Part shown: piece after piece, positions 1,213-17,916 of the stretch
Numbering within the stretch: the stretch's first letter is position 1
Layout: each line of letters opens with the position of its first letter
Source of the DNA: Chthoniobacteraceae bacterium
Lineage (GTDB): Bacteria > Verrucomicrobiota > Verrucomicrobiia > Chthoniobacterales > Chthoniobacteraceae
Assembly (NCBI GenBank): GCA_031409655.1
Contig: JANNXQ010000019.1
Coordinates: 1-41,504 of the forward strand
Direction of reading: 5' to 3'
Length of the DNA stretch: 41,504 nucleotides
Program-made: the position numbers and the translations under genes
The notes under the pieces: model-generated
Seen by the model: the letters and a program-made list of their open reading frames with translations, nothing else
Told to the model about the DNA's origin: nothing
Database searches by the model: none

Positions 1213-1548
1213 AGAGGGGGAAGTGCCGAGTGTTCGTGTCGCAGCCATGAGGTCGCCGAAAGTTTTGTGGATCGTGTCAATCCCTCTGCCCTCCGCCCAG
1301 CGAAAACGCGCGCACGACGAGAGCGGCGCGTGCGAGTCCGAAGAGGTGGGCGAAACGGAGACGACTGCTCAAACGGGACAACGAGCGCTGGATCCAACTT
1401 CACATTTACGACGCGCCTCCGGGGTGCGAGACGTTTTTCGCATTGATCCGGGGGTTTCGCTCGTTCCTCGCTTCACCTGCAATTAGTCTCCAATGTCTCT
1501 TCGGGACGTTCTCCCGTGGACCATTCGTCGCAAACCAGCTTTCACAAA

Positions 1549-2958: not shown

Positions 2959-4128
2959 ATGACTCAGACCGCCAACTGGAACTACCCGACCAAAGTGCGC
3001 TTCGGCGCGGGTCGCATTCGGGAACTCGCCGACGCCTGCCACAGTCTGGGCATCGAGCGTCCGCTGCTCGTCACCGATCCCGGACTCGCGCGCCTGCCGA
3101 TGATCGCCAGCGCCGTCGAGCAATGCCGGGCCGCCGGTCTTGGCGTCGCCGTTTTTTCCGAGGTCAAAGGGAACCCGACCGAACACAATGTCGCGGACGG
3201 ACTCGCCGCGCTCCGAGCAGGCCAGCACGATGGCGTTATCGCCTTCGGCGGGGGCTCCGCGCTCGATGTGGGAAAGGTCGTCGCCTTCATGGCCGGACAA
3301 ACCCGGCCGATGTGGGACTTCGAGGACATCGGCGACTGGTGGACCCGCGCCGATCCGGCGGGCATCCTGCCCATCGTTGCCGTACCCACCACCGCCGGCA
3401 CCGGTTCCGAAGTAGGCCGCGCGGGTGTGATCAGTCAGCATGGCACCCATTGCAAAAAGGTGATTTTTCATCCGCTCATGCTGCCCGGCTTGGTCATCAG
3501 CGATCCCGAACTTTGTGTAGGTCTGCCTTCCAATTTGACGGCATGGACGGGAATGGACGCGCTGGCCCATTGTTTTGAAGCTTATTGCGCGAAGGGCTTT
3601 CATCCGATGGCCGACGGTATCGCGCTGGAAGGCATCGCGCTCGTTGGTCGCTACCTTCAGAGCGTCGTCGAGAATGGCTCCGATTTGGAAGCCCGCGGGG
3701 GAATGCTCGCCGCCGCCTCCATGGGTGCCGCCGCGTTTCAAAAAGGGCTCGGGGCCATCCACGCGCTCTCTCATCCGGTCGGTGCGCTTTACGACAGCCA
3801 CCACGGCCTCACGAACGCGATCTTCATTCCGTATGTGATGGCCTTCAACCGTCGCGCCATCGAGACCAAGTGTGAACTTATCGCTCGTTACCTGGGCCTG
3901 CCCGAGCCATCGTTCGACGCGCTGCTGCATTGGGTCATCGCCCTCCGCGTCGCGCTGAACATTCCACACACGCTGAAAGGTATCGTTGCAGATGACACCC
4001 GCTTCGAGGAACTGGCGCGCATGGCCGTCGTCGATCCCACCGCCGGCGGCAACCCGATCGAACTTACCGAGGCCCATTGCCTTGAGCTCTATCGTCAATC
4101 ATTCGAAGGCATCGTGCCGACATCGTGA
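2959..4128 (+). CDS. Iron-containing alcohol dehydrogenase
   Basis: GGGSALD, PTTAGTGSE, DALAHCFE, HALSH and HHG metal-binding motifs. Confidence 0.93.
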   Translation: MTQTANWNYPTKVRFGAGRIRELADACHSLGIERPLLVTDPGLARLPMIASAVEQCRAAGLGVAVFSEVKGNPTEHNVADGLAALRAGQHDGVIAFGGGSALDVGKVVAFMAGQTRPMWDFEDIGDWWTRADPAGILPIVAVPTTAGTGSEVGRAGVISQHGTHCKKVIFHPLMLPGLVISDPELCVGLPSNLTAWTGMDALAHCFEAYCAKGFHPMADGIALEGIALVGRYLQSVVENGSDLEARGGMLAAASMGAAAFQKGLGAIHALSHPVGALYDSHHGLTNAIFIPYVMAFNRRAIETKCELIARYLGLPEPSFDALLHWVIALRVALNIPHTLKGIVADDTRFEELARMAVVDPTAGGNPIELTEAHCLELYRQSFEGIVPTS

Positions 4129-4256
4129 GCCACCTGCCCGCTCCGCGAGCCGCTAAGTGAACGACCAGCGACGATCCCAGTTTTTCTCCGTATCTCCATG
4201 ACGAAGCAGGGAGGACCCTCACAGCCTTTTAGTACTGAGCGGTGGTCGCCGCCTGG

Positions 4257-7200
4257 TTATTGCTCCCTGGCGCGAGCCAGAGCCGTGTCGTATTGGCGGG
4301 TGAGAAAATCGTAGAGGACCATTTCGTGGGCGCGCTGACCGGAGCGCAGCAGGCGGTTCGCGTGCATGTGGAGATAGCTCGGCGCGAGTTCCGCGATCGG
4401 GATGGCCAGCCGGCCGGCGGCCTCGCACGCTTTCAACTCCGCGATGATCGGGGCCAGCTTGGTTGAGCGGTGGCGGAGGATTTCAAAACCGGGCGCAAGG
4501 GCGTGGTCGGCATCGGAAGCTGATGAGAGCAGGGCTTCCAAGCTCTGGCGCTCCTTGCGGTAGCGCTCGCTGAGCTGGGCTTTGAGCTTGGTGTCCGCGC
4601 GGAACTCGCGGGCGAAAGCCGCGCGCACGCTGTCGAGCACGGCGAACTTCCCCGGCAAATCGAGCCCGAGGTCCGTGAGCAGGGCATCCATGCCGCGCAG
4701 CGCGAGGCGCCAGCGTTCGTCGAGTCCGGCATCGCCTGACTCCACCAGATCGAGGATTTCGAGGACGGCTTCGCTGTCGATCTGGAAGAGCTGCTCCGCG
4801 AGTAACGTGCCTTCGTCGCCGCCGTAACGCTCGACTTCCCGCTCGTAGGTATCGAACTGCACGCGCCAGAGCTGGCCACGGTGCAGGAGCGGATGCACGG
4901 CGCGTTCGACGGCGGGCAGCACTTCTCCGCGCAACCGCTCCGGGTCGCCGTGAAAGCGCACCCGCAGATGGTGTTCGGGATCGGCGTAGCGGATGAAAAA
5001 CCAACGATTCGCCGCGCCCGCGCCGAGCACCTCGGCGACCAGCGGATGGATCACCTCGCGCAGCACTTCGTCCGCAGTCGCGGTGCCGGTATAGAGCTTG
5101 GCGTAGAGCCATTCCGAGCCGGGCGGGAAAGTGCGCGGCGCCGGCGAGCGCGCGCTCCCGCGGCGGGCCGTGCCGGGAACGTGCGGATGGATCGCGTTGC
5201 CGGGCTCGGCGCTGGCGGGTGCGGTGCGAATGAATGGCACGACGAACTCATGGACGTAGCGGCCTTCGGGTCCGCAGGCAATGAGCAGATCCGGCGCGGG
5301 AAATACTTCGACCAGCGTGGCCTCGTCGCGTCCCTTCACGCGATCCACGAAGGTCTCGACGCAGAGGACGTTGTCGAGATCGAGCGGGAGATGATTGTCG
5401 AAATCGGTCAGCGCGACGTAACGCGGCAGCCGCCGCGCGGTGCGCCACACCTGCAAGGCGCGGAATCGTTCCGCGCCATGCTTCACGCCCAGCGAGTGGA
5501 GCTCATCTTTGGTCGCGTTCCATTGGGCGCGGGCGAGCACCACTTTCCCCGCCGAGACGCGGGGCAGAAACGGCGCACGCTGGAGGATGCCCCAGTCCCA
5601 GCCGAGCGAGGCGGTTCCTTGCATCTGCAGCGCGCACAGGAATCTGTAGGTCGGCAGACTATTCCACGCGTAATTGTGCGCGCTGGTCAGCCGCGGAATG
5701 ACTTCGCGGTCGAGACGCGCGGAGAAGAGCGCGAGACGTCCATCGCGCACGGCGAGGCGCAGATCGGTGATGGGAAGCTGCTGCTCCGGGGTGGCGCCGG
5801 AGTGGCCGAGGTAGGGAATTTCATGCGCGCGCAGCACCGGTCGCGCGAGGATATTGCCGAGCCGGCCTTCCGGCAGGTGGACGATCTCCGCAAACACCGC
5901 CTCGGGATGCAGCGCTTCCTCCGCGCGCAAGTAGCGCTCGACCTGGCGGTGCAGCTCCGGATCGGCGTGGCAGAAGCGACCGAGCAGCGCCGCGCCGGAG
6001 GGTCCGCGCACCTCGCCCAGGAGCACGCGAAAATCGCCGGTCACGAGCGCCGCCTCGGAAGCCGCGGCCACCGTCGCCATGACCGCAAAGGAATCCGGCA
6101 GCGCGGGCGATTCCTTTGCCGCCATCTCGTCCAGGTCCTTGCTGCCGAGCAGGATTTCCGAGCTGCTGTTTGCGAGCGCCTCGGCCAGTTTGCGCAGCAG
6201 CAGATTTTCGCGCGCGTCCCAGCGCGCAGTGCCGTCTTTGTCGCGGGGAAACGTCAGACCCTTGAGCAGCGGCGAGGTTTCACCGCCGCGCGCGACGGGA
6301 AAGCCGAGGCCCGTTTCGCCATCCAGCGCCTCGACCAGCGGGACGAGCCGGCCCTCATACCGCGTCGCGAAAGCCTCGCGAAAACGCGCGAGTTCATCGC
6401 TGGCCGGCGGGAGCGGACGGGCGAGCCGGTGCAGGAGTTCGACGCCGCGGTTGAGTTCGGCGAGGACCTGGCCGCCGAGGGTCAGCGTGGCGGCGGGCTT
6501 GACCATCTCCACCTGCACGAGCCGGGAGATTTCGACCTTCGCCGGCAAGTCCGCGAGCACCGCGGCCACCGCGCGGTAGCGCTCGGGCGGATGGCCCAGG
6601 CCCGCCGCATCCAGCGACTCAAGCGTGGCGTGGATCTGCTCCAGCGCGCGAGTCGCGGTGGCCAGCGCGGGATGCGGGGAAAACTGCGCGGTGAGCGCGT
6701 GGATCGGCTCCGGTCCCGTGACCGCGAGCGCGATGTCGGGCATCAGGATCTGGCTCTCGATCAGCCCGGCGACGTATTCCTCCGCTTCCGCCGAGGTGAT
6801 CTCTTTATCCACCAGCGCGGCCGCCAAATCGGCACAGGTGGCGCCGTCGCGGGCTCGCGTCAGCGTGGCTTCCAGAAGGTCGGACACCTCGACCGCGACG
6901 AGGTGATAGGAACGCTCTTTGCCTTCCATCTTCGACTCGGCGTAACGCATGCGGCCCGCGGCGCGATAGAGGCTGGAATTCGGCCGGTAGGTGAAGATCG
7001 GGCGCAGCCCCGGATCGGCAGCGAGCAGGCCGGTGAGCGCGGCGAGGTAGTCCATGTCCAGCCGCGTGTGACGCCGCCACTCGGCGCGGCTGGCGAGCGT
7101 GATTTTCGTCGCGGCACCGATCGTCCCGACCGAGCAGCCCGCACAGAGCCCGAAGGGCGTGGCCCGGCCGGCCATGCGTAGAAAGTAACGCACCAGCGCC

Positions 7201-7514
7201 TGCTCGATGCCGCGTCCGCGTTCACTTTCCGGCTCGCGTTCCCACAGCCCGAAGCTCGCCTCCAGATCGGGCGAGGCCACAAACAAGGCTTCGCGCACTT
7301 CCGCCCGCACCATGGCCGCATGCAGACGCGACCGGAGTCGGGAGCGATCCGCGGCGAGCGCTGGATCGAGCCGCTCGGCATCGTGCAACGCCGCGGGAGC
7401 TTCCAGTCCATCGCTCCACGCGAGCAGTTCATCGAAGGGCAACAGCGGGGTGCGCAGGGCGAAGAAATCCGCGGAAATGAATGCCGGGAGTTTCCGGCTT
7501 TTGGACGCGGCCAT
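4257..7514 (-). CDS. lanB: Class I lanthipeptide dehydratase LanB (glutamylation + elimination domains)
   Basis: LRTPLLP, RYFLRMAGRATPFG, GRFCH, PRLTSAHNY, PFLPRV; C-terminal FPPGSEWLYAKLY...WFFIRYADPEHHLRVRF...YEREVERYGG...SYLHMHANRL. ATG at 7514 lies just after the lanC stop (1085 aa). Confidence 0.95.
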   Translation of the reverse strand: MAASKSRKLPAFISADFFALRTPLLPFDELLAWSDGLEAPAALHDAERLDPALAADRSRLRSRLHAAMVRAEVREALFVASPDLEASFGLWEREPESERGRGIEQALVRYFLRMAGRATPFGLCAGCSVGTIGAATKITLASRAEWRRHTRLDMDYLAALTGLLAADPGLRPIFTYRPNSSLYRAAGRMRYAESKMEGKERSYHLVAVEVSDLLEATLTRARDGATCADLAAALVDKEITSAEAEEYVAGLIESQILMPDIALAVTGPEPIHALTAQFSPHPALATATRALEQIHATLESLDAAGLGHPPERYRAVAAVLADLPAKVEISRLVQVEMVKPAATLTLGGQVLAELNRGVELLHRLARPLPPASDELARFREAFATRYEGRLVPLVEALDGETGLGFPVARGGETSPLLKGLTFPRDKDGTARWDARENLLLRKLAEALANSSSEILLGSKDLDEMAAKESPALPDSFAVMATVAAASEAALVTGDFRVLLGEVRGPSGAALLGRFCHADPELHRQVERYLRAEEALHPEAVFAEIVHLPEGRLGNILARPVLRAHEIPYLGHSGATPEQQLPITDLRLAVRDGRLALFSARLDREVIPRLTSAHNYAWNSLPTYRFLCALQMQGTASLGWDWGILQRAPFLPRVSAGKVVLARAQWNATKDELHSLGVKHGAERFRALQVWRTARRLPRYVALTDFDNHLPLDLDNVLCVETFVDRVKGRDEATLVEVFPAPDLLIACGPEGRYVHEFVVPFIRTAPASAEPGNAIHPHVPGTARRGSARSPAPRTFPPGSEWLYAKLYTGTATADEVLREVIHPLVAEVLGAGAANRWFFIRYADPEHHLRVRFHGDPERLRGEVLPAVERAVHPLLHRGQLWRVQFDTYEREVERYGGDEGTLLAEQLFQIDSEAVLEILDLVESGDAGLDERWRLALRGMDALLTDLGLDLPGKFAVLDSVRAAFAREFRADTKLKAQLSERYRKERQSLEALLSSASDADHALAPGFEILRHRSTKLAPIIAELKACEAAGRLAIPIAELAPSYLHMHANRLLRSGQRAHEMVLYDFLTRQYDTALARAREQ

Positions 7515-7516
7515 GA

Positions 7517-8854
7517 TCACGCGATCTTCTCCGCGGGGATAGACGCGAGCAACATCCGATCCCACTCCGGCTCGCGTTCCGTGGTCGCCGCGAGGAGCGC
7601 GAGCGCCACGCCCGCCGCGCCTTCGAGGAGGCCCCGCTCCGCCACCCAGCGCACTTCGCGGGGCCGCTCGGGATCGGGCATCATCGCGGAGAAGCCGGCG
7701 ATGCTCTGGTCCGGTTGCCGCATCGCCAGAGCGCGCGCCAACCAGCCGCGCGCGGCAACCCCGAGCGTCTCGTCACCCGTGGCCTGGAAGAGGCGGTTGA
7801 AGAGATGGCCCACCCCGGCCGCGCCGTGGCAGAGGCCGCAGTCCACCACCCCGGATTGTTCCGCAGGACGAGCGGCGGCGCGGTGCGCGATGCGCAAGGC
7901 TTCGCGTTCCCAAGCCGGCTCCCGCGCACCACGGGCGGCCTGGAGCAGCGCCACCGCGACCCCGAGATCGCCGTAGCACCACGCCAGCCGCGCGGGCGTT
8001 GGCGAAATGCCCGGTCCGACCCAATAGGGAAAACTTTGCGCGCGATCATCGGGCTCCTGGGCGAGCAACCACGCCACCGCGCCGTCGAGAAGCGCGCGGG
8101 CTTTTTGGCGGGGACCGTCCAGTCCCTCATCGCCGCGCGCACCCACCTGACCGAGCAGCGCAATCACGCCCGGCACGCCGTGCGCCAATCCGACGTCGTA
8201 ATAACCCTCGGGATACTCTTCGCACTGCTCGGACGGGAGCCGCTCGGGCGCGGTGCGCCAGGTGATTCCCCCAGCGGTGCGTTCCGCCAATCCATCCAGA
8301 CCATCCACCACCAACGCGAGGCCCGTGACGCCCGCTGGCTGCGGCAGGCGTTCCAGCGCATAGCATCCGAAGCCCACCAGGCCACTGACGAGGTCATAGT
8401 CCCCACGCCAGGGCGATTGGAGGAGGAGTTCGCGCAGCGCGGCGTCCACGGCCGCGTTGGGATCGTCTTCGCCGGCCTCGAAAAGCCGCCCCTCCAGATG
8501 CGCCACGGCCCAGGCCGTGCCAGTGAAGCCGCCAAAAAGCCCGGGCGTGCTCCGCGCAGCGCCGACCGCCTCGACCGCCTCATTCAGAAAATCCACGGCG
8601 CTTTCCTCCGCCGCGTCCACCAGCCCGGATTCGGCGAGGCTGGCGTAAAACACGGCGAGCCCCGCGCATCCACCTGCGAGCGAGCCAGCGGCCCTTTCCT
8701 CCGGAAGCAAGACCGCCCGCGGCTGCCGCAGCGCCTGGGCGATCGCCAGGATCACCTCGCGGGCCTGCGCTCCCACCTCGCCATCGAGGATCGGCACCCA
8801 CGATCCGCCCGGATTTTTCGGAGCGCTTGAAGGCGTGGGCTGAATGTCTCTCAT
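7517..8854 (-). CDS. lanC: Lanthionine cyclase LanC
   Basis: YDLVSG, GLAHGVPG, AWCYGDLG and GLCHGAAG; the Zn-ligand Cys/Cys/His residues are present. Confidence 0.95.
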   Translation of the reverse strand: MRDIQPTPSSAPKNPGGSWVPILDGEVGAQAREVILAIAQALRQPRAVLLPEERAAGSLAGGCAGLAVFYASLAESGLVDAAEESAVDFLNEAVEAVGAARSTPGLFGGFTGTAWAVAHLEGRLFEAGEDDPNAAVDAALRELLLQSPWRGDYDLVSGLVGFGCYALERLPQPAGVTGLALVVDGLDGLAERTAGGITWRTAPERLPSEQCEEYPEGYYDVGLAHGVPGVIALLGQVGARGDEGLDGPRQKARALLDGAVAWLLAQEPDDRAQSFPYWVGPGISPTPARLAWCYGDLGVAVALLQAARGAREPAWEREALRIAHRAAARPAEQSGVVDCGLCHGAAGVGHLFNRLFQATGDETLGVAARGWLARALAMRQPDQSIAGFSAMMPDPERPREVRWVAERGLLEGAAGVALALLAATTEREPEWDRMLLASIPAEKIA

Positions 8855-8893
8855 TGCCGGGGAATCAGCGGCAGCATCGGTTTCCTCCTCGCC

Positions 8894-9754
8894 CTACGCC
8901 AGCAGCTCGGCCCGGCCCTCGTTCAGCCGCGCCAGGTCGATGAGATACTGCTCCTCCTCCGCGTCGAGCGGCCCTTCCTCCAGAGCGGCGGCCAGGCCTG
9001 CGACCTCCTCCGGCGTCGTGGGTGAGCAGAGCAGCCCGTCGAGTTCGGGCCGCGTGAGGGCAAAGCGGTGATAGTCCGTCACCCGCGGTTGCCAGTGATC
9101 GTCGTTCAGGCCCAGCTTCGCAAAGCGCTCCGGCGCCACGAAGCCGTGGGTGTTGGTGAAGTTGTAGAGCAAGGTTGCGCGCCGTTTTTCGAGGTGGGGG
9201 AAGACATCGTGCCGCGCGCCGGGGTGCGCCGGGTTGTAGCGGAGAAAGGCGAGATCGACCAGGCCGTGATTGACCGCGAGCAGCGCCGCCTCACGGTCGT
9301 GAAAAGACGCGCCAATGGCCCGGACTCCGGCGAAACCGCGCCGACGATGCTCCTGATACACCGGCAGCCGGGTCAGAAACTCGTGCGCATACGCCCCGCC
9401 GGCCACCGCCACGTCCACCGTTTCCAGCCCCGGCACCGCCTCCAAGACTTCCTCCAATCCCATCCAGCAAAACTCGGGCTGCGTCGGATAAATCGAGACC
9501 GCCACCACGATCTGCCTCCGAACCTCGGGGTCACGCGCCAGCAACAGCTCCAAGCCGCGGCGCGACGCTTCATAGTTCGGCCAGTGCAGATCAGCACTGA
9601 GGAAGAAAAAGTTGATCCCGGCATCAAACGCCGCCGCAATGGCCTCCGGAGACCGGACATATCCAAGGCAGAACGGACTAACGCTCAGCCTGGCTCTCCC
9701 CAGGCTGAGACGATCCCTGAATCTGGGCAGTGCGGGGCGCGAGGGTATCGTCAG
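8894..9754 (-). CDS. Aldo/keto-reductase-like oxidoreductase in the RiPP operon (start uncertain)
   Basis: LGRARLSVSPFCLG, AAFDAGINFF and GVRAIGASFH...LRYN resemble AKR TIM-barrel motifs. There is no ATG between the last precursor stop and these motifs, so CTG at 9754 is assumed. Confidence 0.65.
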   Translation of the reverse strand: MTIPSRPALPRFRDRLSLGRARLSVSPFCLGYVRSPEAIAAAFDAGINFFFLSADLHWPNYEASRRGLELLLARDPEVRRQIVVAVSIYPTQPEFCWMGLEEVLEAVPGLETVDVAVAGGAYAHEFLTRLPVYQEHRRRGFAGVRAIGASFHDREAALLAVNHGLVDLAFLRYNPAHPGARHDVFPHLEKRRATLLYNFTNTHGFVAPERFAKLGLNDDHWQPRVTDYHRFALTRPELDGLLCSPTTPEEVAGLAAALEEGPLDAEEEQYLIDLARLNEGRAELLA

Positions 9755-9771
9755 AAAACGGTTGGGGGATG

Positions 9772-9969
9772 TTAGGTGACGATGCTGCTGGCTACGTTGC
9801 TGCCTTTTGACACCACCGCGCCCCCAGAACTCCGCCCGCCTCGAATCGCCCCGGCATCCCGATCCGACAGGTTCTCGACCGTTTCCTTGGTGAGCTTCAG
9901 GCTCTTGATCTTCACTTTGCCTTTGCTCGACGGTGCGGCAGCTTCTTCGTGGATCTTTTTCGTTTTCAT
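9772..9969 (-). CDS. lanA: RiPP precursor A8; core RSSGGAVVSKGSNVASSIVT (Cys-free)
   Basis: 45-aa leader with LKLTKETVENL...IRGG. Confidence 0.85.
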   Translation of the reverse strand: MKTKKIHEEAAAPSSKGKVKIKSLKLTKETVENLSDRDAGAIRGGRSSGGAVVSKGSNVASSIVT

Positions 9970-10166
9970 GTTGGGCCACTCTGACCTGATATGCTACCAC
10001 TGATAGACTTAGTTTTCACCGATCCTGACACCCCGCCCCTTACGGCACCGGCGGCCGTATCCGACAGGTTCTCGATGGTTTCCTTGGTGAGCTTCAGGCT
10101 CTTAATCTTCACTTTGCCTTTCGGCGTTGGTGCGGCGGCTTCTTCGTGGGTCTTTTTGGATCTCAT
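9966..10166 (-). CDS. lanA: RiPP precursor A7; core VSGSVKTKSISGSISGQSGPT (Cys-free)
   Basis: Same 45-aa leader ending VRGG; ATGA overlap with A8. Confidence 0.85.
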   Translation of the reverse strand: MRSKKTHEEAAAPTPKGKVKIKSLKLTKETIENLSDTAAGAVRGGVSGSVKTKSISGSISGQSGPT

Positions 10167-10230
10167 GATGGGTTCTTTTTTTGAGTTGCGTGTTGGTTTT
10201 TCAGAGCGGGCGGCAGCCGATGCATTCCTT

Positions 10231-10407
10231 TCAGGTGTTTCCAGTTCTTCGTGAACCTAACGAGCCAGACCCTCCGCCCCGGACCGACCCCGCATCCTGA
10301 TCCGACAGGTTCCCGACGGTTTCCTTGCTGAGCTTCAGGCTCTTGATCTTCACCTTGCCTTGAGGAGACGGCTTGGTGGCTTCTTGTTTGGTCGTTTTCG
10401 TTTTCAT
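10231..10407 (-). CDS. lanA: RiPP precursor A6 (58 aa, missing from the ORF track); core GSGSLGSRRTGNT (Cys-free)
   Basis: Manual translation: MKTKTTKQEATKPSPQGKVKIKSLKLSKETVGNLSDQDAGSVRGG-GSGSLGSRRTGNT*. Confidence 0.85.
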   Translation of the reverse strand: MKTKTTKQEATKPSPQGKVKIKSLKLSKETVGNLSDQDAGSVRGGGSGSLGSRRTGNT

Positions 10408-10422
10408 GATGGGTTCTTTGCT

Positions 10423-10599
10423 TCAGCGGGTGGCAGTGCGGGCGGAGCATGTCCACGTGTAACCCCCGCCCTTCACCGTCCCGGCGTTGGCATCAGACAG
10501 GTTCCCGACGGTTTCCTTGGTGAGCTTCAGGCTCTTGATCTTCACCTTGCCTTTCGGCGACGGTGCAGCGGCTTCTTCGTGGGTCTTTTTGTTTTTCAT
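10423..10599 (-). CDS. lanA: Lanthipeptide precursor A5; core GYTWTCSARTATR
   Basis: ATG at 10599; leader MKNKKTHEEAAAPSPKGKVKIKSLKLTKETVGNLSDANAGTVKGG. Confidence 0.88.
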   Translation of the reverse strand: MKNKKTHEEAAAPSPKGKVKIKSLKLTKETVGNLSDANAGTVKGGGYTWTCSARTATR

Positions 10600-10747
10600 G
10601 ATGGGTTCGTTTCTTAGTTTTAGTTCTTTGGTTGGACTGGCGATGCGTGCGGTAGGCCGTGCGTAATCCAGCGACCTTTCGACGCTGCGGAAAAACAGAG
10701 GGCTCTGGGCACACGAGCCTCGGCTCAGGGCTGGCGGCATCAACCTT

Positions 10748-10942
10748 TTAGATTGATCTTGGCGGACAACTACACCCCGAGCCCGCAGCCCTACCCGTCG
10801 CTGCCGCCCCACCCCTGACAGCGTCGGCAGCGGTATCCGACAGGTTCTCGATGGTTTCCTTATGAAGTTTCAGGCTCTTGATCTTCACCTTGCCTTTCGG
10901 CGTCGGCGTGGCGGCTTCTTCGTGGGTCTTTTTGGATCTCAT
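10748..10942 (-). CDS. lanA: Lanthipeptide precursor A4; core AAATGRAAGSGCSCPPRSI
   Basis: Same leader ending VRGG; core has 2 Cys plus Ser/Thr. Confidence 0.88.
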   Translation of the reverse strand: MRSKKTHEEAATPTPKGKVKIKSLKLHKETIENLSDTAADAVRGGAAATGRAAGSGCSCPPRSI

Positions 10943-11006
10943 GATGGGTTCTTTTTCTGAGTTACGTGTTGGTTGGTCTGAGCGGGCGGCACCCGATGGG
11001 TTCCTT

Positions 11007-11192
11007 TCAGGTGTTTCCGGTTTTGATACTGCCGCCTCCGCATCTGTCCGAGTAGCCTCCGCCCTTCACAGCCTTGGCGTCGGCATCAGAGAGATTCCCG
11101 ACGGTCTCCTTGGTGAGCTTCAGGCTCTTGATCTGCACCTTGCCCTTCGGCGTCGGCGTGGCGGCTTCTTCGTGGGTCTTTTTCGTTTTCAT
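11007..11192 (-). CDS. lanA: Lanthipeptide precursor A3; core GYSDRCGGGSIKTGNT
   Basis: ATG at 11192; same leader ending VKGG. Confidence 0.88.
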   Translation of the reverse strand: MKTKKTHEEAATPTPKGKVQIKSLKLTKETVGNLSDADAKAVKGGGYSDRCGGGSIKTGNT

Positions 11193-11211
11193 AGTGGGGT
11201 TCTTGCGGGGG

Positions 11212-11640
11212 TTAGTGGGCGGACAACGGACCAAGGCGGGCGGCGGATTGTTTCCGCTCGATCCGCGAATCCATCCAGAACCGGATCACGGCCTTCAGCC
11301 CGGTGTGGGGCGCGAGCCAGAGTGCGAATCGCTCGCCGTGCCGCAGATACAGCGCATGGAACCAAGCCGGAGAATCTTCCGTCAGCCAGTCGCGGAAGAG
11401 CATCCAACGTGGGTTCTCTTCCCCGTAAACGGCGCGAGCGATCCAGCATGCCACTATGACGGTGCCACCCGCCGCTGAATTGTCCCTCGGACATTTGGTA
11501 GTAATTCCACCTTTCACGAGCCCCGCATCGTGGTCAGAGAGATCCGCGATCGTTTCCTTTTGGAGCTTCAGATTCTTGATCTTCACCTTGCCTTTCGGCG
11601 TCGGCGTGGCGGCTTCTTCGTGGGTCTTTTTGGTTTTCAT
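11212..11640 (-). CDS. lanA: Precursor A2: leader + 19-aa core ITTKCPRDNSAAGGTVIVA + 78-aa CWIARAVYG domain
   Basis: ATG at 11640, 142 aa; the C-terminal domain is 73/78 identical to that of A1. Confidence 0.85.
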   Translation of the reverse strand: MKTKKTHEEAATPTPKGKVKIKNLKLQKETIADLSDHDAGLVKGGITTKCPRDNSAAGGTVIVACWIARAVYGEENPRWMLFRDWLTEDSPAWFHALYLRHGERFALWLAPHTGLKAVIRFWMDSRIERKQSAARLGPLSAH

Positions 11641-11659
11641 GGTGTGATTTGTTTCTTGG

Positions 11660-12088
11660 TCAATGAGCGGACAACGGAGCAAGGCGGGCGGTGGATTGTT
11701 TCCGCTCGATCCGCGAATCCATCCAGAACCGGATCGCGGCCTTCAGCCCGGTGTGCGGCGCGAGCCAGAGCGCGAACCGCTCGCCATGCCGCAGATACAG
11801 CGCATGGAACCAAGCCGGAGAATCTTCCATCAGCCAGTCGCGGAAGAGCATCCACCGCGGGTTCTCTTCCCCGTAAACGGCGCGCGCGACCCAGCATTGC
11901 GCGACAGCGGTTCCTCCTCCTCCGGCATTTCCACCATTATTCCTAGAACCAGCTCCCCCTTTTACACCCCCGGCATCCGAGTCCGACAGGTTCTCGATGG
12001 TTTCCTTGCTGAGTTTCAGATTCTTGATCTTCACCTTGCCCTTCGGCGTCGGCGTGGCGGCTTCTTCGTGGGTTTTTTTGGTCTTCAT
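11660..12088 (-). CDS. lanA: Precursor A1: leader + 19-aa core AGSRNNGGNAGGGGTAVAQ + 78-aa CWVARAVYG domain
   Basis: 142 aa; LKLSKETIENL...VKGG leader followed by core and an aromatic-rich C-terminal domain. Confidence 0.85.
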   Translation of the reverse strand: MKTKKTHEEAATPTPKGKVKIKNLKLSKETIENLSDSDAGGVKGGAGSRNNGGNAGGGGTAVAQCWVARAVYGEENPRWMLFRDWLMEDSPAWFHALYLRHGERFALWLAPHTGLKAAIRFWMDSRIERKQSTARLAPLSAH

Positions 12089-12297
12089 GGGGTGCTGGTT
12101 TCTTCAGTTCCGGGTTTTTTTGGTTTGGTCTGTTTTTTCCCTGTCCGGCCTCCGGTGCTGCCAAACAGGGTGCGGCCTCCGCCGGTGACATCCCGCGTGG
12201 GAATCAGGTCGTCGAGACGAATGACCCGCGTCTTTACGGCCCGCTTCTTCGGCGGATCGGGTTCGTTTTTTGGCGGCTCTTTTTCTCCGGGGCTCAC
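12085..12297 (-). CDS. Small basic protein with an internal double-glycine motif (IRLDDLIPTRDVTGG); possible second precursor type
   Basis: GTG at 12297, 70 aa; its TGA overlaps the ATG of A1 (ATGA coupling). Confidence 0.5.
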   Translation of the reverse strand: MSPGEKEPPKNEPDPPKKRAVKTRVIRLDDLIPTRDVTGGGRTLFGSTGGRTGKKQTKPKKPGTEETSTP

Positions 12298-12310
12298 GAA
12301 CCGATACCTT

Positions 12311-12326
12311 ATCAGGACGCGTGCCG
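12311..12326 (-). promoter_or_regulatory. Candidate sigma54 (-24/-12) promoter for the precursor-AKR-lanC-lanB operon
   Basis: CGGCACG-CGTC-CTGAT versus consensus TGGCACG-N4-TTGCW; the -12 box is imperfect (GA); an activator gene is adjacent. Confidence 0.4.
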
Positions 12327-12364
12327 ACCCGCCGGGATCGCTGCCTCCAGCCCGAGGACACGCC

Positions 12365-12380
12365 GGGACAGAAAATTGCA
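12365..12380 (+). promoter_or_regulatory. Candidate sigma54 promoter for the activator/export arm
   Basis: GGGACAG-AAAA-TTGCA gives GG-N10-GC spacing with a perfect -12 box and an imperfect -24 box. Confidence 0.35.
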
Positions 12381-12610
12381 ACCCGCTGGTGACGAGACGA
12401 TTACGCACGTGGGGAAAGGCCGGAAAAAAGTGCGGACGAGGCAGTGGTGGACTTTCCGCGGGGAAATGGGTGGCTCCGGCGTGGAGCCAGATGGCCCTGT
12501 ATCGATCCGGCCGCGGCCCCATGGTGAGCCCGCGCCGAGGTGGAAACGCTCGCCCTCGCCGGAAGATCGGCCTACAAACGCGTTTCACTCGGAAGTCGGC
12601 TGCCACGCCC

Positions 12611-13612
12611 ATGATTTCGCCCGCGCTTTTCCAACTCAAAGTCGAGGAACTGACCTCGGCCAATGTCGCCATGCAGCGCTGCCTGAAGCTGGCCGCGCTG
12701 GCCGCGCAGAGCGACATCCCGGTGCTCATCCTCGGCCCCACTGGCACGGGCAAGACCCTGCTCGCCCAAGCCATCCATAATTCCTCCGCGCGCGCCGCCG
12801 GGCCGTTCGTCTCCTTCAACGCCTCTGCGATGAGCGACACGCTGCTCGAGAGCGAACTCTTCGGCCACGAGCGCGGGGCCTTCACCGGGGCGCGGCAGAT
12901 GCACAAGGGCCGCTTCGAGATGGCGCACGCCGGCACCCTCTTCCTCGACGAAATCGCGGACATGAGCCCGCTCGCCCAGGCGAAGATCCTCCGGGCTGTG
13001 GAATACGGCGAATTTGAGCGGGTGGGGGGCGAAGGGATGCATCGCTCGGATGCGCGCATCATCTCCGCGACGAATTGCTCGCTGCGCGAACGCATCCGCG
13101 CGCGGAGATTCCGCGAAGACCTCTACCACCGGCTCGATGGCCTGGTGCTGCTCATCCCGCCGCTGCGGGAGCGGGTGGAGGATCTGCCGTCGCTCATCGC
13201 GCTGGAACTCAAGGCCGCCGCCGTGGAAGCCGGGAAACGGATCACTTCCATCCATCCTGCCGCGATGGATCGGCTGCTCGGCTACGAATGGCCCGGCAAT
13301 CTCCGCGAGCTGCATCACACGATGCGGAGCGTGGCGCTTTTCTGCGAAGGCAAGGTGGTCCAGCCTGAGCACGTTGGCTTTCAGCGAGACCTCGCGCCCG
13401 AATCCCCTCCCCGCGCAGAGCCGCTAACGGATGCACCCAGCGCGGACCGTGCGGGAACCGCCGCCGAGGATCAGACGCTGGCCCGCGCCACGAGAGAACA
13501 TGTACAGCGAGTCCACGAATCCACCGGCCGGAATCAGCGCCGGACCGCCCGACTCCTCGGCATTTCCCGAGGGAAGCTCGTCCGCCATCTCGCGCAGATG
13601 GAGGGAAAATAG
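12611..13612 (+). CDS. Sigma54-dependent transcriptional activator (AAA+ and Fis-type HTH, no sensory domain)
   Basis: GPTGTGKT, ESELFGHERGAFTGA, LFLDEI, FREDLYHRL, WPGNLREL, TARLLGISR; ATG at 12611. Confidence 0.92.
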   Translation: MISPALFQLKVEELTSANVAMQRCLKLAALAAQSDIPVLILGPTGTGKTLLAQAIHNSSARAAGPFVSFNASAMSDTLLESELFGHERGAFTGARQMHKGRFEMAHAGTLFLDEIADMSPLAQAKILRAVEYGEFERVGGEGMHRSDARIISATNCSLRERIRARRFREDLYHRLDGLVLLIPPLRERVEDLPSLIALELKAAAVEAGKRITSIHPAAMDRLLGYEWPGNLRELHHTMRSVALFCEGKVVQPEHVGFQRDLAPESPPRAEPLTDAPSADRAGTAAEDQTLARATREHVQRVHESTGRNQRRTARLLGISRGKLVRHLAQMEGK

Positions 13613-13740: not shown

Positions 13741-14802
13741 GTGATCCCGCCCCCGGAGCGAAACCGAACTGTCTTCATTGCTGCGGGTCGTGAGATTACG
13801 GTCTGGGATGTCGTCGATGCCGCCGGCTTCCGGGGTGAGTTGGCTGGGGCGTGGAATCAACTGGCGATCCTCCTGGGAGCCGGGGAGCGGGCGGCTGGAC
13901 TGGAAGTGGATGAAGAAGTGGCGCAAGCCACGTCGGAAAAGTTCCGCTCCGAGCGCGGCTTGATCACGGCAGAGGAAACGGAAAGCTGGCTCGATCAGCG
14001 CGGGCTGACCACGGATGATTTCAGCGACTACTTCGTCCGGCACTACTGGGACGAACTCTTCCGCGGGCAGATCACGGCAAGCGGCGGCGACTATCTCTCG
14101 GCTGCGGAGGAACTCCGCGATTTGCTCCGGGTCGAGCTGTGGTTTTCAGGGGAATTTGCGCGGCTGGCGGGGCGGCTGAGCTGGCGCTACGCCGCCCTGG
14201 ATGGCGCCCCCAGCGGGATCACGCCCGAACTGATCGAGGCCGAAGGGGAACGATTCCGGGCGCGTGCCGGCCTCGAGGCGGGAGCGGTCGCGGCCTGGCT
14301 CTACCAGATGGGTCGTGACCAGCGCTGGCTCGAGGAGATGCTCGCGCTCGAGGCCGCGTATCACCGCGAATGCGCAGCGGCGACGAACCTGAAAGAGCAG
14401 GAAAGGATGCTGCGGGAACATCGGATCTCCTGGACGCGGGTGGAGCTGGAGACGGTCGATCTGGATTCCCCGGCGGCCGCTCGCGAGGCGCTGCTCTGCG
14501 CGCGGGAAGACGAGACCTCCTTGCTGGAAATCGCGACCGAGGGGCGCTACCCGCATCGCCGCGCCACTTTGCTGATCGAGGAATTTGCGCCAGAGCGCCA
14601 GCCAGCGCTGCTCTGCGGGGCGCCGGGCGAAGTCCTCGAGCCGTGGGCGCGCGCCGAGGGCTTTCAGCTCTGCCGGATCCTGCGCAAGATCGAGCCGGCG
14701 CTGGCCGATCCCGTGATCCACGAGCGCGTCGAACGGCTGATCCTCGAACGCCATTTTTCCGAGCTGACGACGCAGCACATTCGCTGGTCGTTCGGCCTGT
14801 GA
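13741..14802 (+). CDS. PpiC/SurA-like foldase-type accessory protein of the peptide export system
   Basis: Acidic helical protein (FRSERGLITAEETESWL..., C-terminal GEVLEPWARAEGFQLCRILRKIEP). It lies just upstream of the C39 ABC exporter, a position where PpiC-like proteins are commonly found. Confidence 0.55.
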   Translation: MIPPPERNRTVFIAAGREITVWDVVDAAGFRGELAGAWNQLAILLGAGERAAGLEVDEEVAQATSEKFRSERGLITAEETESWLDQRGLTTDDFSDYFVRHYWDELFRGQITASGGDYLSAAEELRDLLRVELWFSGEFARLAGRLSWRYAALDGAPSGITPELIEAEGERFRARAGLEAGAVAAWLYQMGRDQRWLEEMLALEAAYHRECAAATNLKEQERMLREHRISWTRVELETVDLDSPAAAREALLCAREDETSLLEIATEGRYPHRRATLLIEEFAPERQPALLCGAPGEVLEPWARAEGFQLCRILRKIEPALADPVIHERVERLILERHFSELTTQHIRWSFGL

Positions 14803-14808
14803 CCGCCC

Positions 14809-17800
14809 ATGCCCGAGTCGCTCGATGAACTCCTGCAACGCTCGGCGCTCTTCCGCTCGCTGCCGGTCGAGCACGCGGAAAAGTTGCGCCCGCTGCTCCG
14901 CGAGGAGCACTTCGAGTTTGGCGACGTGATCGTGAAGCAAGGCGACGCGGCGGATGCGCTCTACCTGCTCACCTCGGGCCGGGCGCGCGTGGTGAAGGTG
15001 ACGGAGAGCGGGGAGGAAATCGCCCTGACGACGCTGCGTCCCGGCGACGAGTTTGGCGAGCTGGCGCTGATCTCCGGCGGGACCCGGAATGCCACGGTGC
15101 GCTGCAGCACCGCAGTGGACGCACTCCGGCTCGACGTGAAGGATTTTCTGCCCCTGCTCGCGCTCCATCCCGAACTCCGGCGCTCGATCGAAACGACGGC
15201 GCGGACCCGGACCTTGCACGGGTTCCTCTACGAGTTCAGCAATTTCGGCCGATTGTCCGCACGCGTCCTGCATGCCCTCGTCGAAAAGCTTTCGCCGGTC
15301 GATTTCAAAAAGGGAGACCTCATCCTCCGCGAGGGCGATCCGCCCGGGGCGATGTTCATCGTGCAGACCGGTCGGGTCCGGGTCTTTGCCAGTCCCAATG
15401 GGCGCGCGCTCAACCTCGCCTTCTATCGTGGAGGCGATTTTTTCGGCGAGCTTTCGCTCCTGAATGACACGCCGCGCGCGGCGTCCGCCGAAGCCATGAC
15501 GGACAGCCACTTGCTCGCCTTGCAGCCGGGCGATGTGCGGGAGCTGGAGGAGCGCTTTCCGGAGTTCCGCAGCTTCCTCGAAGAGCGCCGGACGCAATAC
15601 CGGGCGGGCACCGAGGCGCGGGTGCCGCTGGACTTTGCGGAGGAAGCGCTGCCCGCGGAAGCGCGCCCGAACGACAAGGTCGCCATCGACGGCGAGAATG
15701 GCGCGATGCCCGAAAGCGACGAGCCTTTTGCCGATGAACGCGGGCTCTTTCGCAAGCGCCGTGGCCGCATCCGGAAGATCCCGCACATCCGGCAGATCGA
15801 CGAGATGGATTGCGGGGCGGCGGCGCTCGGGATGATCTGCCGGCACTTCGGGCGTGCGGTGAGCCTCGCGCACATCCGGCAGCTCTGTCACACGGCGCGC
15901 GATGGCACGAGCCTCAAGGGCATCTGCCGCGCCGCCAGCGAACTCGGTCTGGCGGCGCGCGCGCTGAAAGTTTCCCCGCGCAATCTGCCGCAGATGCCGC
16001 TCCCGGCAATCATCCACTGGGATGGCAACCACTGGATGGTGCTCTACGATGTCGGCAAAACGGAGGTGCGCGTGAGCGATCCGGCATTTGGCGCGCGGCG
16101 CATCCCGCGGGCCGAATTTGCCGAGAAGTGGACCGGCTACGCGGCGCTCTTCGACTTCACGGAGGAATTCAAAAACGCCCCGGAAGGAGGCTCGACCTTT
16201 AGTTGGCTGGGGCCATTTCTACGCCGGCACGCCGCCACTCTGCGCCAGGCGCTGCTCCTCGCGGGAGTCGTGACTTTCCTCCAACTGCTCTTCCCCATCT
16301 TCACGCAACTGGTGGTGGATAAAGTGGTGATCGGCGATGACCTCGGGCTGCTCACCACGATCCTGATCGCGATGGGGGTCGCGCTCGTCTTCATGCAGGT
16401 GGCCAACCTCGCGCAGCAATATCTGCTGAGCTTTGCCGCGGTGCGCATCGACGCGGCGATCCTCGACTTCCTGACGCGGAAGATGCTGGCGCTGCCGATG
16501 TCCTACTTCAGCACCCGGCGCACGGGCGACATCCAGCGCCGGCTCGATGGCGCGCGGCAGATCCGGCTCTTCGCGGTCCAGCATGGGATCGGCGGCGGGC
16601 TCGCGCTGGTGACGCTCGTCGGCGCAGTGGTCTTGATGGCATTCTACAATCTCGCGCTCGCGGGCACCTTCCTGGCCACCGCGCCGCTCTACGTGGGCAT
16701 GATGTTTTTTTCGGTCAAAGTGCTCCGGCCACTCTTCGCCGACATCGAGGAAAGCCAGGGCAAATACGCTTCACACCAGATCGACGCGATCAAGGGCATC
16801 GAAGCGGTCAAGGCGGCGTCCGCGGAGCTGAATTTTCGCGACGCGATGCTCCACGAATTCCTCGGTGTCTCGCGAAAAATGTTCCGCGCGAATTTCATCA
16901 TCATGTCCTACGACAGCGTGCTCCAGTCCATCGGGTTGCTCTCGACCGCACTCTTCCTGTGGGTCGGGGCCAACAAGGTGATCACCGGGCAGATCACGGT
17001 GGGCGCATTCGTCGCCTTCAGTTCGCTCACTGCCCTGGCCTACGCCGCGATCCTGCGGACGCTCGGCATCTGGGACGAATGGCAGCAGGTGTCCGTCCTG
17101 CTGAACCGGCTCAACGACGTCTTTGAGGCAGAGCCCGAGCAGGGCCGTGACCGCTCGCGCCTCACGCCGGTGCCCTTGCTCGAGGGGCGGATCGAATTGC
17201 GCAAGGTCGGCTTCAAATACGGCGGCCCGGAAGCGCCGGATATTTTGCGCGGGCTCGACCTCGCCTTCGGGCCCGGCCAGACCGTCGCCATCGTGGGTCG
17301 CAGCGGCAGCGGCAAGACCACGCTGATCAAGCTCCTGGCCGGCCTCATCGAACCAACCGCCGGCACCATCCTCGTCGATCATACCGATCTCAAGACGCTC
17401 AACTATCGGGAGGTGCGGCGGCAGATCGGGATGGTCTTGCAGGACAACCACATGTTCAACGAGACCATCCTGCGCAACATCGCCTTTGGAGATCCGGAGC
17501 CGGATTTCGACCGCATCCTCTGGTGCGCCCAAACCGCGAACGCCCACGACTTCATCATGCGCCTGCCGCTGGGTTACGAGTCGCGGATCGGTGAATCGGG
17601 GCTCGGTTTGTCCGGCGGACAAAAGCAACGCATCGCGATCGCCCGCGCCCTTTATCTCGACCCGCCCATCCTGATTTTCGACGAAGCGACCAGCGCCCTC
17701 GACACCGAGTCGGAACGCGCCATCCAGGGAAATCTGGGCCGCATGACCGCAGGCCGGACCTGCATCGTCATCGCCCACCGCCTGAGCACCATTCGCGACG

Positions 17801-17916
17801 CGGACAAGATCGTCGTTTTGGAAAAAGGCGAAATCGCCGAAGTCGGGACGCACGACGAACTCATGGCCCGGCGCGGACTCTACTTCCATCTCTCCAGCCA
17901 GCAGCTCGGCATCTGA
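14809..17916 (+). CDS. lanT: Peptidase-containing ABC transporter: 2x cNMP-binding + C39 peptidase + TMD + NBD
   Basis: FGELALI...RNATV and FGELSLL...RAASA (cNMP); QIDEMDCGAAAL and HWMVLY...DP (C39 Cys/His/Asp); GRSGSGKT, LSGGQKQR, DEATSALD. Confidence 0.93.
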   Translation: MPESLDELLQRSALFRSLPVEHAEKLRPLLREEHFEFGDVIVKQGDAADALYLLTSGRARVVKVTESGEEIALTTLRPGDEFGELALISGGTRNATVRCSTAVDALRLDVKDFLPLLALHPELRRSIETTARTRTLHGFLYEFSNFGRLSARVLHALVEKLSPVDFKKGDLILREGDPPGAMFIVQTGRVRVFASPNGRALNLAFYRGGDFFGELSLLNDTPRAASAEAMTDSHLLALQPGDVRELEERFPEFRSFLEERRTQYRAGTEARVPLDFAEEALPAEARPNDKVAIDGENGAMPESDEPFADERGLFRKRRGRIRKIPHIRQIDEMDCGAAALGMICRHFGRAVSLAHIRQLCHTARDGTSLKGICRAASELGLAARALKVSPRNLPQMPLPAIIHWDGNHWMVLYDVGKTEVRVSDPAFGARRIPRAEFAEKWTGYAALFDFTEEFKNAPEGGSTFSWLGPFLRRHAATLRQALLLAGVVTFLQLLFPIFTQLVVDKVVIGDDLGLLTTILIAMGVALVFMQVANLAQQYLLSFAAVRIDAAILDFLTRKMLALPMSYFSTRRTGDIQRRLDGARQIRLFAVQHGIGGGLALVTLVGAVVLMAFYNLALAGTFLATAPLYVGMMFFSVKVLRPLFADIEESQGKYASHQIDAIKGIEAVKAASAELNFRDAMLHEFLGVSRKMFRANFIIMSYDSVLQSIGLLSTALFLWVGANKVITGQITVGAFVAFSSLTALAYAAILRTLGIWDEWQQVSVLLNRLNDVFEAEPEQGRDRSRLTPVPLLEGRIELRKVGFKYGGPEAPDILRGLDLAFGPGQTVAIVGRSGSGKTTLIKLLAGLIEPTAGTILVDHTDLKTLNYREVRRQIGMVLQDNHMFNETILRNIAFGDPEPDFDRILWCAQTANAHDFIMRLPLGYESRIGESGLGLSGGQKQRIAIARALYLDPPILIFDEATSALDTESERAIQGNLGRMTAGRTCIVIAHRLSTIRDADKIVVLEKGEIAEVGTHDELMARRGLYFHLSSQQLGI

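Follow-up and report, generated by a model that had tools for sequence, protein, structure and literature searches.

We analysed a 41,504-nucleotide stretch of DNA (hereafter the window) from a Chthoniobacteraceae bacterium (contig JANNXQ010000019.1, assembly GCA_031409655.1), in which a class I lanthipeptide operon contains a gene for a protein with the fold of an aldo-keto reductase (AKR). The gene lies at 8894–9754 on the minus strand, between a series of precursor genes (A1–A8) and lanC. The initial annotation had placed it there as a co-oriented open reading frame (ORF) inside the operon, next to the cysteine-free, serine-rich precursors A6–A8, and this placement is correct. The observations described below make it likely that the protein is a dedicated tailoring enzyme of dehydrated peptides, probably guided by the leader and working alongside LanC. 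The genes of the operon are:

4257–7565, minus strand: lanB, full-length dehydratase (1102 amino acids as listed, alternative start ATG 7514; PF04738, E 5e-165; PF14028, 2.5e-74)
7517–8854, minus strand: lanC (445 amino acids; PF05147, E 7.1e-33)
8894–9754, minus strand: the AKR-fold gene (286 amino acids plus stop), assigned by frame, fold and homology, with CTG at the conserved start position
9772–9969, minus strand: precursor A8, no cysteine, core after the GG RSSGGAVVSKGSNVASSIVT (NF038153 lant_leader_L1a, E 0.0032, below cut-off)
9966–10166, minus strand: precursor A7, serine-rich cysteine-free core
10231–10407, minus strand: precursor A6, cysteine-free core
10423–10599, minus strand: precursor A5, one cysteine in the core
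10748–10942, minus strand: precursor A4, two cysteines in the core
11007–11192, minus strand: precursor A3, one cysteine in the core
11212–11640, minus strand: precursor A2, leader, short core and a C-terminal domain of about 75 amino acids
11660–12088, minus strand: precursor A1, leader, short core and a C-terminal domain of about 75 amino acids

A8, the AKR-fold gene, lanC and lanB form a tightly packed row on the minus strand: the stop of A8 at 9772 is 17 nucleotides upstream of the AKR-fold gene start (9754), lanC starts at 8854, 39 nucleotides downstream of the AKR-fold gene stop, and lanC and lanB abut or overlap. A terminator scan found none between A8 and the AKR-fold gene, and a sigma-70 promoter scan of 4000–12600 returned no promoter-like site. 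The sigma-54 consensus has no exact match near the precursors; looser matches occur at the chance rate, none of them near the operon. The eight precursors, which run from 12088 down to 9772, have a common lysine-rich leader ending in GG. After the GG, A6, A7 and A8 are rich in serine and glycine and contain no cysteine, and A1–A5 contain cysteine. In A1 and A2 the conserved extra domain of about 75 residues (CW[IV]ARAVYGEENPRWMLFRDWL...) follows the GG and the short core, an unusual arrangement for a lanthipeptide precursor; in A1 it has a sub-threshold match to NF041770, CFI-box-CTERM (E 0.04, 13.7 bits, cut-off 40).

The minus-strand frame from 9754 to 8894 is open for 286 codons followed by a TAG stop, and is a real gene, far beyond what chance would give. 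At the conserved start position, 9754, it has CTG; between the A8 stop and the conserved N-terminus the frame contains neither ATG nor GTG nor TTG. In the nearest relative (locus L001), whose protein is 84–85% identical, the aligned start codon is TTG, and the start sites of relatives fall within a few residues of the CTG position. Because the frame starts with CTG and offers no alternative before the conserved N-terminus, the gene caller shortened the window copy: the database entry (P0006) has only 204 amino acids, from an internal GTG, and would be without strands 1 and 2 and the most conserved motif. Apart from the CTG, which is its sole irregularity, the window copy is intact.

The AlphaFold2 (AF2) model of the protein has a mean predicted local distance difference test (pLDDT) score of 85.4 and a predicted template modelling (pTM) score of 0.85. 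In a Foldseek comparison with the Protein Data Bank (PDB), the best matches are AKRs, namely AKRtyl and L-galactose dehydrogenases (E about 1e-12, template modelling (TM) score 0.58–0.65). An exhaustive VIA-align search placed AKR-type barrels at ranks 1–29 (Z 15.1–19.4); 27 of these entries are titled as AKRs or as sugar or aldose reductases or dehydrogenases of the AKR family, and the other two are 6gtm (SmbA) and 8xvo (titled SDR16). The best of them, 9w6y, aligns with Z 19.4 and a root-mean-square deviation (rmsd) of 3.5 Å over 250 residues. Below this block come a radial-spoke chain (7jtk_I, Z 13.8) and other TIM barrels at 12.5 or less. At the level of sequence profiles, hhalign aligned a profile of 47 family members with one of 27 canonical AKRs, drawn from 12 relatives as well as from the window's genome, over 256 columns with a probability of 99.5% and E 1.5e-21; an earlier run with only three canonical AKRs gave a weak and partial alignment (58%, 62 columns). 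The protein is thus an (β/α)8 AKR barrel, homologous to AKRs and a member of the superfamily by structure and descent, as the initial annotation had proposed. The label does not hold at the level of curated families. PF00248 matches the window protein with E 0.097 and 12.2 bits, below its gathering cut-off of 24, so that membership of the curated AKR family was rejected; a scan of the same protein against NCBIfam gave no match, and none of the best 120 listed relatives carries a precomputed Pfam domain. Searches of PDB sequences returned marginal AKR matches only (E 2e-4 to 1e-3). The ESM Atlas returned two Myxococcota clusters followed by AKR clusters, which adds no information beyond ancestry.

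The family is sizeable. Among the scored candidates, 715 proteins match at E ≤ 0.001, with E values down to 1e-155, and the best 120 listed relatives are 55–88% identical to the window protein, its own 204-residue entry excepted. When 1.84 billion cluster representatives were searched exhaustively, 650 matched at E ≤ 0.001, of which 328 reached ≤ 1e-10 and 147 reached ≤ 1e-30. The family thus comprises no fewer than 147 clusters at the 50% identity level, and neither Pfam nor NCBIfam has a model for it. Taking one genome per species, we collected 75 loci that hold a relative (L numbers). They come from metagenome-assembled genomes (MAGs) that are assigned by label to Myxococcota, Acidobacteriota, Planctomycetota, Gemmatimonadota, Methylomirabilota and a small number of further groups. 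The window's genome has a single copy of the family; PF00248 matches five proteins there, three of them at E ≤ 1e-40. Two relatives are fusions. In P0122 (591 amino acids) a HopA1 domain precedes the AKR-like barrel, and a methionine is present at the junction where stand-alone genes begin; in P0152 (655 amino acids) a JmjC/cupin domain precedes the barrel, and the junction leads directly into the N-terminal motif of the family with no methionine.

The active site of this barrel has been rebuilt. We compared residue counts in the 47 family members with the 27 canonical AKRs in the hhalign register, using the 286-residue numbering; the roles of the tetrad and cofactor columns are those established for AKRs. 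Every one of the 27 canonical AKRs shows the full tetrad of Asp, Tyr, Lys and His. The corresponding positions of the 47 family members are occupied as follows:

Position 51, Asp column: Phe 39, Leu 5, Ala 2, Tyr 1; no Asp
Position 61, Tyr column: Tyr 44, Phe 2, reached via a five-residue insertion
Position 87, Lys column: Val 29, Ala 7, Thr 4, Ile 3, Cys 2 (the five commonest residues); no Lys
Position 119, His column: Gly 46, Ala 1
Position 150, cofactor Ser column: Ser or Thr in 40
Position 151, cofactor Asn column: Phe in 44
Position 170, cofactor Gln column: Phe 30, Tyr 10, Leu 4, Met 2, Ala 1; no Gln

The tetrad, which the initial annotation had named as a check, thus lacks three of its four residues: the Asp, Lys and His columns each retain the AKR residue in 0 of 47 members, and a catalytically canonical AKR was rejected. 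Even the tyrosine is uncertain, because an ungapped HMMER alignment to 8jwk puts a leucine in the Tyr column where hhalign gives Tyr61. In AKRs the cofactor phosphates are bound by the loop that follows strand 8; here, no column from 243 to 253 reaches 75% conservation. Judged by these residues, the active-site comparison lends no support to NAD(P)H binding, and all of these changes weigh against a reductase. In place of the lost residues the family has a conserved set of its own, consisting of D55 (47 of 47), H57 (45), Y61 (44), Y89 (43), H152 (41), R172 (41), N174 (39), D227 (46) and R230 (44), together with C29 (42). The polar residues D55, H57, Y61, Y89, H152, R172/N174, D227 and R230 sit on the catalytic face of the barrel, at the strand ends. 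Two more distant proteins, P0246 and P0247, have the family motifs, yet retain a His-Trp behind strand 4 and pass the cut-off of PF00248; from their sequences they look like intermediates between canonical AKRs and the family.

The company that the gene keeps was examined in the 75 loci with hidden Markov models (HMMs) derived from the gene clusters of these same loci. Thirty loci contain LanB, 21 of them within 120 bp of the AKR-fold gene. A further 23 loci contain a HopA1-family protein and an APH phosphotransferase (in L045, PF17914 with 7.6e-31 and PF01636 with 6.8e-17), and the two systems never occur together in one locus. In two more loci LanC is the only lanthipeptide gene, which brings the loci with lanthipeptide machinery to 55 of 75. 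The link of the homologues to lanB and lanC, and so to loci for peptides that are ribosomally synthesized and modified after translation (RiPPs), on which the initial annotation had made its proposal depend, is therefore clear. A quick maximum-likelihood tree of 74 rows, from which L074 and L075 were omitted because their translated matches were short or broken, puts the HopA1-linked members in at least two separate clades amid the LanB-linked ones, and the context labels are strongly clustered. The family tracks the dehydration of Ser/Thr, by whichever enzymes it is carried out. Twenty loci contain LanC (12 of the 30 with LanB, 6 of the 23 with HopA1/APH and the 2 where it is alone); in 12 of the twenty, window included, no more than 150 bp separate it from the barrel gene. 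This proximity suggests that the function of the barrel adds to cyclisation. A JmjC/cupin hydroxylase is found in 15 loci (Myxococcota MAGs), as the immediate neighbour in 13, and one is also present in the LanB locus L002. No other oxidoreductase family recurs among the neighbour clusters of the related loci. In one Kofleriaceae locus, a second AKR-type protein that passes PF00248 (1.7e-11) and a radical SAM protein are encoded just upstream of the AKR-fold gene and LanB (L047:6921-8261 and L047:8292-9335, plus strand).

A complex model, computed from the family alignment and the precursor alignment, predicts where the leader might bind. Three runs gave a median score of 0.62, compared with 0.01 for the best control; of 157 solved complexes 116 reach this score, as do 2 of 215 mismatched pairs, a rough calibration since custom alignments were used. 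At least 35% of the contacts agree between runs, and the pLDDT of the partner is 41–44. The confident contacts of the model join leader residues 18 and 20–29 (the conserved motif KIKSLKLTKE) to enzyme residues 219–222 and 266–285, that is, to the W221 loop and the C-terminal helix, which in the model border the mouth of the barrel. We know of no solved AKR–peptide complex that the model could be recalling. The model supports binding of the conserved leader motif through the C-terminal helix and the W221 loop.

Precursors were then sought in the related loci. A leader HMM made from the window alone detected them in seven loci, and after three rounds of rebuilding it detected 47 leader-like ORFs in 18 of the 75. 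Eleven of the 47 have cysteine-free cores; L002 contributes six (its entire set), L009 three, L010 one and L036 one, a long serine-rich ORF. The family therefore also occurs where thioether formation is impossible. The remaining 36 contain cysteine, which speaks against any tie to cysteine-free cores. Such a tie, implied by the initial annotation, was dropped; the family is not specific to these precursors. Locus L009 has eleven tandem precursors of two leader families (L009:5359-9431) beside LanB and the AKR-fold gene; seven of them have a core of the form xxSxRQRCx, and a YcaO gene lies among them (L009:6922-8385, plus strand). A whole-genome scan of this 6.7-Mb assembly did not find LanC.

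Two further kinds of ORF may encode substrates. In Myxococcaceae and Archangiaceae, directly downstream of the genes for the APH kinase and the HopA1 lyase, there is a Pro/Lys-rich, cysteine-free ORF of 130–175 amino acids with PLKS repeats, which may be a repeat substrate for a modification system not yet described. In a Bryobacteraceae MAG, a 404-residue ORF directly follows APH, HopA1, LanC and the AKR-fold gene and is possibly a very long or multi-core precursor. Their positions are:

L045:13565-14011, minus strand: PLKS-repeat ORF, adjoining the AKR-fold gene and two JmjC/cupin genes; also in L040, L051, L052 and L037
L060:14379-15593, minus strand: 404-residue ORF rich in Cys, Thr and Pro

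Divergent from the operon, the window encodes a regulator and an export system:

12500–13612, plus strand: sigma-54 activator, start not fixed (PF00158, 3.8e-61)
13741–14802, plus strand: 353-residue ORF with high third-position GC, between activator and exporter, no Pfam match at E ≤ 0.001
14809–17916, plus strand: ABC exporter with cyclic-nucleotide-binding (cNMP) and C39-peptidase domains (PF00027, PF03412, PF00664, PF00005)
17926–19116, plus strand: HlyD-type membrane fusion protein (PF13437, 1.4e-12)

Sigma-54 activators are present in 14 of the 75 related loci, and the 353-residue ORF may belong to the cluster. The exporter is likely to be the one that cleaves the GG leader. It has two N-terminal cyclic-nucleotide-binding domains (PF00027 in two stretches, 1.5e-46), and this domain content suggests that a cyclic nucleotide may gate export. 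Farther away, at 1–1248 (minus strand), TIR and NACHT/AAA_16 domains occur in a protein that extends beyond the window's start and is likely a defence-type NTPase unrelated to the AKR-fold gene. An amidotransferase of the asparagine-synthase type lies at 27484–29382 (minus strand), about 18 kb from the operon. A protein of the same type is encoded about 5 kb from the AKR-fold gene in L008 (L008:2445-4631, minus strand), a locus in which no dehydratase was detected. This recurrence may be coincidence.

The best overall explanation of these observations, which we hold tentatively, is a rebuilt branch of the AKRs that serves as a RiPP accessory after Ser/Thr dehydration, with saturation of dehydroalanine (Dha) or dehydrobutyrine (Dhb) as its likeliest reaction. 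The leader would be held at the C-terminal helix and the W221 loop so that the core hangs over the mouth of the barrel, and the enzyme would act on Dha/Dhb after dehydration, beside LanC rather than instead of it. Under an operational definition (conserved co-location with core RiPP enzymes, and recognition of the precursor), the 55 loci, the fusions and the modelled leader docking place the protein among RiPP tailoring enzymes. Conversion of surplus Dha/Dhb to D-Ala and D-aminobutyrate (D-Abu) is the single likeliest reaction, and taken by itself still a doubtful one. The retained Tyr61 would protonate C-alpha, the His/Asn/Arg set would polarise the amide carbonyl, and a hydride donor would have to be bound in a non-canonical manner. 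For reduction speak the ancestry in an oxidoreductase family, the tyrosine that 44 of 47 members retain in the hhalign register, the lack of any other recurrent oxidoreductase family among the neighbour clusters, and the cysteine-free cores bearing Ser/Thr in A6–A8, L002 (6 of 6), L036 and L010, together with the cysteine-free PLKS-repeat ORF of the Myxococcaceae loci. Reduction alone among the transformations requires no second group in the core, and it fits both the ancestry and the niche of the LanJ reductases of dehydrated residues. The initial annotation had proposed a new class of reductase for dehydroamino acids or an N-terminal 2-oxo group. Its premises of AKR descent and a class I operon stand; three of the four tetrad residues and the Asn and Gln ligands of the cofactor are lost, reduction of a 2-oxo group by ordinary AKR chemistry is unlikely, and NAD(P)H-dependent reduction of Dha is one possibility among several.

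Several points weigh against this explanation. Judged from the alignment, nearly all residues that bind or use NAD(P)H appear to be lost, which argues against reduction. Neighbourhood and fusion are indirect evidence for the general reading, and the P0122 fusion could, from its junction, be a read-through call. The CTG of the window copy may be used as a start or may mean weak translation. In 20 of the 75 loci no lanthipeptide gene was detected; 13 of these have less than 5 kb on one side, one (L074) is a fragment and six have full flanks of at least 5 kb on both sides. Among these six, L057 adjoins an APH gene and L030 and L073 hold C39 ABC exporters.

The rival that we consider about as probable as saturation is a cofactor-free acid/base enzyme acting on Dha/Dhb at the rebuilt site (D55-x-H57, Y61, Y89, H152, R172, N174, D227, R230). 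Its reaction could be the stereocontrolled addition of a nucleophile (water, an amine or a side chain), enamide–imine tautomerisation, or backbone cleavage at Dha. Across the 47 members the Asp, Lys and His of the tetrad have gone, as have the Asn and Gln that bind nicotinamide, while the new polar set is 85–100% conserved; the partners of the family include two unrelated types of dehydratase, and a lyase occurs fused to it; SmbA (6gtm, Z 16.7), solved with ppGpp, has by its title the same fold without reductase chemistry; and the pairing or fusion with JmjC hydroxylases (15 of 75 loci, L002, P0152) hints at multi-step side-chain chemistry. It is, however, a bundle of mechanisms, each of which alone is less likely than reduction. 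The cysteine-free cores have no second nucleophile in common (the L002 core GGASGGVLRGT has no Lys, Cys or His), and the literature searched holds no precedent in the AKR fold. Another rival is a non-catalytic adaptor: such a pseudo-enzyme would present the precursor to the dehydratase or serve the precursor as a chaperone, and the modelled leader docking, the loss of the AKR catalytic residues and the HopA1 fusion speak for it. We regard this as unlikely, because some ten polar residues on the catalytic face are 85–100% conserved in members that are only 33–64% identical to the window protein, as is typical of an active or ligand-binding site; LanB, moreover, carries a leader-binding domain of its own.

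Could the barrel replace LanC as a thioether cyclase, as cyclase domains are fused to lyases in class III and IV synthetases? Of the 30 loci with LanB, 18 showed no LanC in the locus DNA, as did 17 of the 23 with HopA1/APH; whole-genome scans lacked it in three of five such genomes (G013, G016, G017), three loci (L047, L048, L018) have cysteine-bearing cores with LanC absent from the locus, and P0122 joins a lyase to an AKR-like barrel. On the other hand, LanC shares 20 loci with the family and is close by in 12, the window among them; the cores found in G016 (L036) and G017 (L002) are cysteine-free, the YcaO among the precursors of G013 (L009) can account for the conserved cysteine, the PLKS-repeat ORFs have no cysteine, and Cys29 is present in 42 of 47 members and so is not invariant. 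This makes a cyclase very unlikely. LanC-like identity was itself rejected: the protein has no PF05147 match, and a true LanC is encoded next door at 7517–8854. Less probable again is a classical AKR carbonyl reductase that, like ElxO, would use NADPH to convert an N-terminal 2-oxoacyl group (from Dha1 or Dhb1 after leader removal) to a lactyl or 2-hydroxybutyryl group. The AKR fold and ancestry and the serines near the N-termini of the A7 (VSGS...) and A8 (RSSG...) cores are in keeping with it. Against it, the tetrad Asp, Lys and His, which carbonyl reduction requires, are missing in 47 of 47 members. The enzyme is modelled on the leader and the 2-oxo group arises only after the leader is cut; the C39 exporter would make that cut during export, away from a cytoplasmic enzyme. 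Least credible of all, and contradicted by the gene neighbourhoods and the tree, is a housekeeping oxidoreductase that lies in the operon by accident. AKR-type genes are common, as the five PF00248 matches in the window's genome illustrate, but a random gene is expected within 10 kb of LanB only about 1% of the time by our estimate, the family has one copy in this genome, and 55 of 75 relatives sit in lanthipeptide-type loci across Myxococcota, Acidobacteriota, Planctomycetota and others.

In the openly accessible full-text literature we found no paper linking an aldo-keto reductase to lanthipeptide or RiPP tailoring, and a term search of the text available from a 2023 review of dehydroamino acids in natural products returned neither 'aldo' nor 'LanJ'. 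The family is probably an undescribed enzyme family in a known role, lanthipeptide tailoring. A bolder statement, which we offer as a speculative possibility, is that these AKR-derived barrels gave up nicotinamide-type carbonyl chemistry and became leader-guided Dha/Dhb enzymes, either a fourth, structurally new class of reductase or an unknown transformation of dehydro residues, and that the family defines widespread lanthipeptide-like products of Myxococcota, Acidobacteriota and Planctomycetota, made with LanB or LanK/LanY and often without LanC. Enzymes that act on Dha/Dhb determine the outcome of lanthipeptide biosynthesis, including rings, D-amino acids and cross-links, and the known ones are of Gram-positive or actinobacterial origin. 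Here, one protein family accompanies two unrelated dehydration machineries in little-studied Gram-negative phyla, often as the sole conserved partner, and it can receive no annotation from Pfam or NCBIfam because neither has a model for it. Knowing its reaction would provide a tool for peptide engineering and a handle on many unexplored clusters, as well as a clear example of an old redox scaffold rebuilt for peptide chemistry.

Among known proteins, the nearest structures are those of the AKR superfamily: L-galactose dehydrogenase (9w6y), an AKR (7bbz), AKR11C1 (1ynp) and AKRtyl (8jwk). The protein shares with them the (β/α)8 barrel with its N-terminal hairpin (Z 17–19.4 over 240–260 residues) and the motifs GINFF, xRYN and the C-terminal L-x-x-E-E helix. 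Unlike them, it has the tetrad Asp/Lys/His and the Asn/Gln ligands replaced, mostly by Phe, Val and Gly; it is also only about 285 residues long with shorter loops, is encoded in RiPP operons and is modelled as binding a leader. SmbA of Caulobacter (6gtm, with ppGpp) also has an AKR-type barrel (Z 16.7, rmsd 4.5 over 246 residues) and no sequence match to the AKR-fold protein; it presumably uses the barrel for something other than the classical reaction, and we know of no SmbA in RiPP loci. ElxO is reportedly a short-chain dehydrogenase/reductase (SDR) that reduces the N-terminal pyruvyl group of epilancin. Like the AKR-fold gene, it is an oxidoreductase-type tailoring gene in a class I cluster, but it has the SDR Rossmann fold rather than a barrel, and the AKR-like family is without the carbonyl-reducing residues.

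The LanJ enzymes resemble the AKR-fold protein in that their genes lie beside a dehydratase and the cores have Ser/Thr in excess of Cys. The classes described in sections of PMC7268733 and PMC9486802 are a Zn-dehydrogenase (LanJA), a member of the FMN-reductase family (LanJB) and a luciferase-like enzyme that uses F420H2 (LanJC), and the Zn-, flavin- and F420-dependent classes cited in the initial annotation agree with that part of PMC7268733. An AKR-fold reductase would therefore be a new LanJ-type class. Membership of LanJA, LanJB or LanJC was rejected, since the protein has an AKR fold and no Pfam match to those families, which does not exclude the function; in contrast to LanJ it has an unrelated fold and no recognisable cofactor site, and a LanJ-like function is only putative. 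The other dehydration system has its counterpart in class V lanthipeptides. In the relevant part of PMC9486802, a HopA1 lyase and an APH kinase together dehydrate the class V precursor CaoA, and 23 of the 75 relatives lie beside the same kind of pair, as in the LanK/LanY/LanX systems of cacaoidin and lexapeptide. LanX (CaoX) is there a second APH-family protein, so that LanX identity was rejected for the AKR barrel. The typed class V LanA groups in that part of the paper are from actinobacteria and cyanobacteria, whereas the HopA1/APH loci described here come from Myxococcota, Acidobacteriota and Gemmatimonadota.

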